Assembly: GCF_044647545.1 (NCBI RefSeq)
Contig: NZ_CP172818.1
Length of the DNA stretch: 64,000 nucleotides
Direction: 5' to 3' (one strand)
DNA from: Escherichia coli
GTDB lineage: Bacteria; Pseudomonadota; Gammaproteobacteria; Enterobacterales; Enterobacteriaceae
The position numbers and the translations under genes are program-made. Positions 58,516-58,763 of this stretch are shown here, piece after piece (the first letter of the stretch is position 1; each line of letters opens with the position of its first letter). The notes under the pieces were generated by a model. The model did not search any database, was not told the origin of the DNA, and saw only the letters and a program-made list of their open reading frames with translations.

Positions 58516-58583
58516 AATTCATTCTTCACTTTGAACATACTTAAATCTTTAATGCAATTGTTCAGTTCTTGCGCATTTATATC

Positions 58584-58599
58584 TGTGATGGCAACCACA
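58584..58599. promoter_or_regulatory. CRP-like site in the lsrR-lsrA divergent promoter region
   Basis: tgtga-tggcaa-ccaca (TGTGA-N6-CCACA against the TGTGA-N6-TCACA consensus). Confidence 0.5.
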
Positions 58600-58763
58600 G
58601 TTTGACTCTATGAGTATGAACAAACGCAACCGTGAAAATCAAAATAGCATAAATTGTGATCTATTCGTCGGAAATATGTGCAATGTCCACCTAAGGTTAT
58701 GAACAAATTAAAAGCAGAAATACATTTGTTCAAAACTCACCTGCAAAACTGAACGGGGGAAAT

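Follow-up and report, generated by a model that had tools for sequence, protein, structure and literature searches.

The 248-bp region between lsrR and lsrA (58516-58763; 34% GC) of the window, by which we mean the whole 64-kb stretch of DNA that was analysed, is in all likelihood the bidirectional promoter-operator of the lsr regulon, with outward-facing CRP sites and one palindromic operator for each promoter. It is the already known, well-characterised E. coli lsr switch region controlling AI-2 uptake, and the lsrR-lsrA region of E. coli K-12 was reportedly treated earlier by Wang et al. 2005, Xavier & Bassler 2005 and Xue et al. 2009. The control by CRP and LsrR that had first been proposed for this DNA is nothing new, as it has been published since 2005-2009. 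Probably mildly new, as judged by sequence comparison, are a clean definition of the LsrR operator and a probable third operator in other genera, the three-operator layout being possibly a modest addition. The K-12 intergenic region has also been described by Hauk et al. 2016 (PMC5137460).

In E. coli and related bacteria the timing of uptake and destruction of AI-2, an interspecies signal, is set by the lsr switch, which is also a widely used part of synthetic-biology quorum-sensing circuits. Of use to promoter engineers and modellers would be the definition of the operator as TGAACA-N21-TGTTCA, the fixed spacings between CRP sites and operators, and the likelihood that Salmonella and other genera have a third operator.

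According to the list of ORFs, the region is bounded exactly by the lsrR start codon on the minus strand and by the ATG of lsrA on the plus strand, at 58764. The flanking features are the following:

57562-58515, minus strand: lsrR coding sequence, a 317-aa ORF annotated as lsrR in RefSeq and matching PDB 4L5I and 4GO1 (E ~1e-201)
58764-60299, plus strand: lsrA coding sequence, a 511-aa ORF annotated in RefSeq, AI-2 ABC transporter ATPase
58755-58763, plus strand: lsrA ribosome-binding region, GGGGG here and GGAGG in other genera (CGGAGG/CGGGGG conserved)

The match to the crystallised E. coli LsrR identifies the lsrR product as an AI-2-phosphate-responsive repressor of the SorC/DeoR family. 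On one side the flanks carry lsrK and lsrR, on the other lsrACDB and the start of lsrF, so that the full lsr locus, with lsrKR divergent from lsrACDB and the start of lsrF, is present as first described. The ORFs, the RefSeq annotation of a 100%-identical genome and the PDB matches of LsrR all place the region divergently between lsrR(K) and lsrA(CDBFG), and bear out its description as the lsrR-lsrA divergent control region. A 501-bp query spanning the region was 100% identical to many E. coli chromosomes, in which the flanks are annotated as lsrR and lsrA, and of 5426 complete E. coli genomes 4178 carry the region with an identity of at least 95%. The window carries a non-K-12 allele that is collinear with K-12 (most genomes are 95-99% identical), and the K-12 landmarks taken from the literature are all at the expected offsets: TAATGCA (published at -214 to -208, which maps to 58550-58556), AACAAT, AAGATTTAA, TGTGCAAT, AAAACT and AAAACTGAA. 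Rfam gave no RNA family for 58300-59000, and the reading of the region as an RNA element was for this reason dropped.

The palindromic boxes O1 and O2

The original prediction had pointed to two copies of TATGAACAAA (tatgaacaaa), about 85 nt apart, as possible LsrR operator half-sites. Both copies are indeed present at the places given for them, 58615-58624 and 58698-58707, with a start-to-start distance of 83 nt and not ~85. The duplication of the 10-mer is not significant by itself, because 7.9% of dinucleotide shuffles of the region give an exact direct repeat of at least 10 nt (P = 0.079), and it is not conserved: position 58615 is C in the three other E. coli strains compared, and the bases that precede TGAACA differ in other Escherichia species and in other genera. 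The hexamer TGAACA/TGTTCA, of which there are 41 hits in the 64-kb window, occurs five times within the 248 bp, against a mean of 0.41 in shuffles, and none of 5000 shuffles reached five. Four of these five hexamers pair up as two palindromes TGAACA-N21-TGTTCA, the fifth (58617-58622, in copy 1) being unpaired:

58532-58564, unstranded: O1, the lsrR-proximal predicted LsrR operator, TGAACATACTTAAATCTTTAATGCAATTGTTCA (TGAACA-N21-TGTTCA), from repeat analysis, PWM and conservation
58700-58732, unstranded: O2, the lsrA-proximal predicted LsrR operator, TGAACAAATTAAAAGCAGAAATACATTTGTTCA, from inverted repeat I1, PWM and conservation

Direct and inverted repeat analysis gives O1 and O2 as 33-nt units 168 bp apart, and the arms of O2 (inverted repeat I1) are 13 nt long and 92% complementary. 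Copy 2 of tatgaacaaa is the left arm of O2, with its inverted partner at 58724-58732. TGAACA is, on this sequence evidence, very probably the LsrR half-site, as had been supposed, but the unit is the inverted 33-mer and not the direct 10-mer, and 33-bp inverted repeats describe the repressor sites better than a 10-mer in two copies does. Half-sites of the DeoR type (TGAACA) in inverted repeat, suited to a dimer-of-dimers repressor, are thus found in two boxes, and each 33-bp palindrome may be taken as the operator of one LsrR tetramer. The whole of O1 and the right arm of O2 had been absent from the original prediction.

A PWM was derived from 43 orthologous boxes (O1 and O2); with it, O2 was the best site in the window (37.1 bits) and O1 scored 31.0 bits, the next-best site elsewhere scoring 3.0 bits. 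Conservation was followed by an LsrR-relative scan of 25 enterobacterial loci (Escherichia, Citrobacter, Kluyvera, Superficieibacter, Izhakiella, Serratia, Mangrovibacter, Buttiauxella and Edwardsiella), in all of which lsrA is divergent and ~250 bp from lsrR, and by six loci added through protein look-ups (Salmonella, Photorhabdus, Morganella, Pantoea, Enterobacter and Sodalis). The footprint alignment takes in 9 genera, with 19 distinct intergenic regions. Its conserved stretches are sharply bounded and coincide with O1, CRPII, the central TGAAC, GTGATC in CRPI, a TAnnnT hexamer, O2 and the Shine-Dalgarno sequence, four of them reading as follows:

O1: TTGAACAT ... CAATTGTTC
58583-58599, CRPII: CTGTGA-N6-cCACA
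58692-58697: TAnnnT hexamer
O2: TGAACAA ... CATTTGTTCA

TGAACAT and CAATTGTTC of O1 are invariant in the 19 regions, the arm bases of O2 match at 12 of 12 positions in every compared genome except one (1 mismatch), and the conservation of the arms reaches 9 nt (TGAACAAWT). The boxes co-occur with lsrR, at a fixed position and with a fixed geometry, in the 25 + 6 enterobacterial loci and in two distant loci, where LsrR identity is 40-45% and the hexamer-N21-hexamer geometry is kept: the first (40% LsrR identity, 38% GC) carries AGAACA-N21-TGTTCT 22 nt before lsrA, and the second (45%) carries two (C/T)GATCA-N21-TGAT(C/A)A boxes. Another 45% homologue, L038, on a 1.8-kb high-GC contig with no lsr neighbours, yielded nothing, and the Agathobaculum locus L026, at 31% identity, was not taken as an LsrR orthologue. 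Among the other repeats of the region, the 17-nt direct repeat CTATGAGTATGAACAAA / CTAAGGTTATGAACAAA (D2) was rejected as a unit, its non-TGAACA part not being conserved even within Escherichia, and the GGAAATATG repeat (D3) and the short inverted pairs I2-I6 were set aside as by-products of the TGAACA hexamers or of chance.

A single direct-repeat operator, with the tatgaacaaa copies 83 nt apart as its paired LsrR half-sites, is improbable. Both copies hold the conserved TGAACA, the 83 bp between them (~8 helical turns) do not vary among the genomes in which both occur, and the central TGAAC is found in 18 of the 19 aligned sequences; the exact 10-mer is nevertheless a repeat of the kind that shuffles produce, with a base at 58615 and a prefix that vary among strains and genera, and copy 2 and the lsrR-proximal TGAACA each have an inverted partner at N21. 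The strong central sites of other genera are also inverted N21 boxes. Furthermore, neither copy overlaps the published LsrR motifs, including those reported as essential, as these are quoted in later papers (58541-58562 and 58732-58753).

Hauk 2016 (PMC5137460) gives, in its relevant part, the p-lsrR-box as -237 to -197 from the lsrA ATG, which is 58527-58567, and LsrR binding at this box is among the findings that the published accounts relay. The motifs of Xue 2009, as quoted in PMC8487509, are AACAAT and AAGATTTAA for the p-lsrR-box and AAAACT and AAAACTGAA for the p-lsrA-box, the last two mapping here as follows:

58732-58737 (AAAACT) and 58745-58753 (AAAACTGAA), plus strand: published p-lsrA-box motifs, mapped from PMC8487509

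AACAAT is reported, in the accounts relayed by PMC8487509 and PMC5137460, to be essential for LsrR binding. O1 lies inside the p-lsrR-box and holds both AACAAT (58557-58562, minus strand), which belongs to its right arm (GAACAAT), and AAGATTTAA (58541-58549, minus strand). O2 only abuts the motifs quoted for the lsrA side (58732-58753): as AAAACT is at 58732-58737, these motifs, as quoted, start where O2 ends.

Taken literally, the published model has LsrR reading loose AT-rich pairs, AACAAT with AAGATTTAA and AAAACT with AAAACTGAA, the palindromes being incidental, and the lsrA-side operator would therefore be 58732-58753. We consider this unlikely, even though it has behind it the footprinting and mutagenesis of Xue 2009, as relayed by PMC5137460 and PMC8487509, the position of the quoted p-lsrA-box motifs just downstream of O2 and not within it, and a further TGAAC at 58750-58754, inside AAAACTGAA, in E. 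coli. Against it, conservation of AAAACT and AAAACTGAA stops at Escherichia and that of O2 goes beyond it, with invariant arms, AACAAT is itself within the right arm of O1, and the palindrome is unique in 64 kb and has counterparts in the DeoR operator and at distant LsrR loci. Later LsrR papers, including PMC8487509, call the motif only loosely AT-rich; the LsrR footprint reported at cysN contains CATTGTTCC, which resembles an arm of the O boxes. In our reading, the operator definition given here departs from the published account in its palindromes, in a lsrA-side operator just upstream of the published motifs, and in a third box. No description of the palindrome or of the central box was found in the open LsrR literature; a curated regulon database might have one.

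CRP sites and predicted promoters

The CRP-like site that had been proposed at 58584-58599 held up well: it matches the core at 9 of 10 positions, is conserved across ~10 genera and fits the published CRPII. A second, probable CRP site, CRPI, was absent from the earlier description of the region.

58584-58599, unstranded: CRPII, cAMP-CRP site TGTGATGGCAACCACA, 9/10 core positions, conserved, in the published element order
58655-58670, unstranded: CRPI, second, probable cAMP-CRP site TGTGATCTATTCGTCG, left half perfect (5/5 against the CRP core), right half weak (1/5)

The core of CRPII (TGTGA-N6-TCACA, at most one mismatch) is found nowhere else in the 64-kb window, and 2.3% of the shuffled regions contain a CRP core within this limit. 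In ~10 enterobacterial genera its CTGTGA is invariant and its cCACA conserved, and its start is always 52 bp after that of O1 (51 in Pantoea). At CRPI, GTGATC (58656-58661) is invariant across genera in the 19 intergenic regions, and the start of the site is always 45 bp before that of O2 (44 in Pantoea), even where LsrR identity is ~65%. The centres of the two CRP sites are 71 bp apart. Both names follow from Hauk 2016 (PMC5137460), who give the element order as p-lsrR-box, CRPII, CRPI, p-lsrA-box: 58655-58670 is CRPI because TGTGCAAT (58677-58684) is there placed "very close" to CRPI, and 58584-58599 is CRPII because it is the sole CRP-like candidate between the p-lsrR-box and CRPI. According to a 2026 preprint, about half of the lsr-positive Enterobacteriaceae genomes have CRP sites in their lsr region. 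Deletion of crp abolishes lsr expression, and genetics show activation by CRP and repression by LsrR (bioRxiv 10.64898/2026.06.09.730415); CRP dependence and LsrR repression are also part of the earlier published record in so far as later papers quote it.

CRPII and CRPI face outwards, and most likely each would serve one promoter of the divergent pair by class II activation. In class II activation by CRP the centre of the site is at -41.5. With the centre of CRPI (58662.5) at this position, the TSS of lsrA would be near 58704 and its -12 to -7 would be 58692-58697 (TAAGGT); with the centre of CRPII (58591.5) at this position, the TSS of lsrR would be near 58550 and its -12 to -7 would be 58562 to 58557 (AACAAT). 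The predicted -10 elements are then:

58557-58562, minus strand: AACAAT, predicted lsrR -10, overlapping the right arm of O1 and invariant across genera
58692-58697, plus strand: TAAGGT, predicted lsrA -10, a TAnnnT hexamer 2 nt upstream of O2

Nearly all genomes have a TAnnnT hexamer in this place, 2 nt ahead of O2, for example TAAGGT, TACCGT, TACTGT, TATGTT, TACCAT, TACATT, TAGGAT or TACGCT. Our literature search found no experimental TSS of lsrA or lsrR, and a simple scan for sigma-70 promoters and terminators gave no promoter within the region, a null result that is to be expected of activator-dependent promoters and that lends no support.

On these predicted start sites O1 would cover about -14 to +19 of lsrR and O2 about -4 to +29 of lsrA, which would mean repression by promoter occlusion. 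An LsrR tetramer (SorC/DeoR family) on each operator, O2 included, would thus occlude RNA polymerase, phospho-AI-2 would release LsrR, and CRP would limit expression to low-sugar conditions. The requirement of cAMP-CRP for lsr expression, the repression by LsrR and its relief by phospho-AI-2 are established in published work.

Operators that overlap predicted core promoters confound two signals, and the TGAACA hexamers might for this reason be read as promoter elements, variants of a -35-like TTGACA (which TGAACA matches at 4 of 6 positions), or as sites of another factor. We regard this as very unlikely: the hexamers are paired in inverted orientation at a fixed N21 in three places, conservation extends over 9-nt arms, the geometry matches operators of the DeoR type, and the sigma-70 scan gave no promoter using these hexamers.

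The operators are phased at 83-85 bp (~8 helical turns), with O1 to O2 at 166-168 bp, and in the screen of Hauk 2016 (PMC5137460) O1 mutations were present in 12 of 14 up-mutants in the lsrA direction. Both are compatible with a cooperative action between operators, which is speculation. The same authors described a further site of promoter-up mutation:

58677-58684, plus strand: TGTGCAAT, published promoter-up mutation site, proposed by Hauk et al. as a CytR site and not conserved outside Escherichia

The up-mutations in TGTGCAAT may be read from the sequence as approaches to a -10 element, G>A giving TACAAT and C>T giving TGTAAT, both of which match the -10 consensus at 5 of 6 positions.

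The central box between the CRP sites

The fifth, unpaired hexamer, in copy 1 of tatgaacaaa, lies between CRPII and CRPI. In the alignment it appears as the surviving left arm of what would be a third, central box:

58617-58649, unstranded: Oc, central box, vestigial in Escherichia, with left arm TGAACA (58617-58622) and degenerate right arm ATAGCA (58644-58649)

Its TGAAC (58617-58621) is the one kept in 18 of the 19 aligned sequences, at 38 bp from CRPI and 83 bp from O2 (82 in Pantoea). Most genera carry a full box, TGAAC(A/T)-N21-T(A/T/C)TTCA, at the corresponding place, which is 82-83 bp upstream of O2 throughout; it is therefore reasonable to relate copy 1 to LsrR. The PWM scores of this box are the following:

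Salmonella: 25.1 bits
Edwardsiella: 21.1 bits
Serratia: 20.9 bits
Mangrovibacter: 16-24 bits
Photorhabdus: 16.7 bits
Kluyvera: 14.1 bits
Morganella: 13.4 bits

Photorhabdus and Morganella retain Oc, CRPI and O2 without a recognisable O1 or CRPII. Oc is a half-site in Escherichia and Citrobacter, and in E. coli it is a half-site at best: the right arm agrees in 2 of its 6 bases, the site ranks 24th of 63,968 positions with -5.2 bits, and a site scoring like it appears somewhere in 20% of region shuffles. In the orthologous intergenic regions of Enterobacter cancerogenus, Sodalis and Buttiauxella the central box is absent.

There is close to an even chance that the central TGAACA is functionless in E. 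coli, as the decaying remnant of an ancestral third operator. In favour of this, the right arm is degenerate, 20% of region shuffles equal the score of the site, the box is lacking in the three lineages just named, and no LsrR box covers copy 1 in the published accounts as they are quoted. On the other side, the left arm is intact in Escherichia, Citrobacter and Izhakiella in spite of a degenerate right arm and diverged flanks, and it keeps rigid distances from CRPI (38) and O2 (83).

We tentatively propose, with somewhat more doubt than confidence, that the lsr region is an alternating five-site array, O1 - CRPII - Oc - CRPI - O2, with a third LsrR operator between the CRP sites. Oc would cover -87 to -55 of lsrA, adjacent to CRPI, and LsrR might contact it there; phased LsrR tetramers together with the bends induced by CRP might then give cooperative repression or anti-activation, and the AT-rich motif of the literature would be a mis-centred view of TGAACA-N21-TGTTCA.

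Comparison with known systems

The closest likeness is with the DeoR operator of B. subtilis (PMC11229326; PDB 8R7Y, 7BHY), ATTGAACA...TGTTCAA, which is bound by a tetramer and shares with the lsr boxes the outer TGAACA...TGTTCA. The DeoR repressor is a tetramer (dimer of dimers), and LsrR, of the same SorC/DeoR subfamily, structurally close to B. subtilis DeoR and also a tetramer (PMC11229326), shares with it a helix stretch ..R..VSRLL.. (TRLKVSRLL in LsrR, SRPTVSRLL in DeoR), whereas overall the two proteins match only at E = 3e-28. Overlap of operator and promoter is common to DeoR and, with its predicted promoters, to lsr. The two systems differ in spacing, as the hexamers of DeoR are 24 bp apart and span 36 bp of a 39-bp operator and those of lsr are 21 bp apart and span 33 bp, in symmetry, the DeoR operator being asymmetric and the lsr boxes symmetric, and in their effectors, which are dR5P for DeoR and phospho-AI-2 for LsrR.

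A repressor-type site (Oc) between two CRP sites recalls the CytR-CRP complexes of the deoP2 type, and Hauk et al. (PMC5137460) independently suspected CytR-like regulation at lsr. Unlike in the deoP2 type, the CRP centres of lsr are 71 bp apart and the motif sandwiched between them is LsrR-like and not a CytR octamer; no conserved CytR octamer motif (AATGYAAC/GTTGCATT) was found between the tandem CRP sites. TGTGCAAT finds no support as a CytR site either: it is downstream of CRPI and not between the CRP sites, and is confined to Escherichia in its conservation.

Finally, several operators in helical phase for one tetrameric repressor are a feature that lsr would share with lac (O1/O2/O3), gal (OE/OI) and E. 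coli deo. For LsrR, looping or cooperativity is a conjecture from the phasing. A further likeness to these multi-operator systems is that mutations in the distal lsr operator raise expression from the other promoter (PMC5137460).

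A central box between the two CRP sites

Between the CRP sites CRPII (58584-58599) and CRPI (58655-58670) of the lsrR-lsrA intergenic region lies a third box:

58617-58649, central box, TGAAC(A/T)-N21-TnTTCA

In the orthologous intergenic regions compared, this box is always upstream of the putative LsrR operator O2 (58700-58732), at a constant spacing of 82-83 bp. It is found at positions 135-167 of the Salmonella intergenic extract (L027), with further examples in loci L025, L014, L028 and L029. Salmonella, Edwardsiella, Serratia, Mangrovibacter, Photorhabdus and Morganella have a strong version of the box. 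Escherichia and Citrobacter have a half-decayed one, and the orthologous regions of Enterobacter cancerogenus, Sodalis and Buttiauxella lack it.

Variant architectures and start codons in relatives

The intergenic region of Buttiauxella sp. A111 is about 122 bp longer than that of other Buttiauxella species (317 versus 195, by the same extrapolation for both). The insertion separates the CRPII-side module from the CRPI-side module, and despite it the spacings from the putative operator O1 to CRPII and from CRPI to O2 are unchanged. A metagenome contig (L037) whose LsrR has 45% identity carries two (C/T)GATCA-N21-TGAT(C/A)A boxes, 72 bp apart, that retain the 33-bp geometry and in which the half-site appears altered to TGATCA; in place of lsrA, this locus has a gene for a DeoC/LsrF-like aldolase on the divergent side.

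In Citrobacter youngae, Citrobacter sp. On2M and Izhakiella, an ACG stands where E. coli lsrA has its ATG, and an ATG comes 6 nt further on (ACGTAAATGAG); lsrA therefore probably starts at a shifted position in these three.

Presence across E. coli genomes and an ORF upstream of lsrK

Among 5426 complete E. coli genomes, 1248 (~23%) gave no match to the 248-bp intergenic region at 95% identity or above; three matches were plasmid-borne. In strain MB06101, the match is confined to the final 49 bp (query 200-248) and falls within a gene annotated as an autotransporter. This points to a deletion in which lsrRK and most of the intergenic region were lost.

51459-55361, minus strand, 1300-aa ORF upstream of lsrK

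The annotation of the 100%-identical reference genome has, for this gene, a frameshifted "ECSE_1600 family autotransporter" pseudogene spanning ~4.4 kb.

lsrA-proximal motifs and promoter-up mutations

58732-58753, published p-lsrA-box motifs AAAACT and AAAACTGAA, directly downstream of the conserved palindrome O2
58750-58754, extra TGAAC of E. coli, just 5' of the Shine-Dalgarno sequence

The p-lsrA-box motifs are not conserved outside Escherichia. The extra TGAAC is shared with Citrobacter amalonaticus S646, Serratia and Edwardsiella, but not with Salmonella or Kluyvera.

Promoter-up mutations at 58677-58684 were ascribed to a CytR site by Hauk et al. 2016 (PMC5137460). In the aligned intergenic regions, this octamer shows no conservation beyond Escherichia. 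The mutations fall in TGCAAT: G>A yields TACAAT and C>T yields TGTAAT, each matching the -10 consensus at 5/6 positions; judged by sequence, a new or improved -10 hexamer would be a simpler explanation of their effect than a CytR site.
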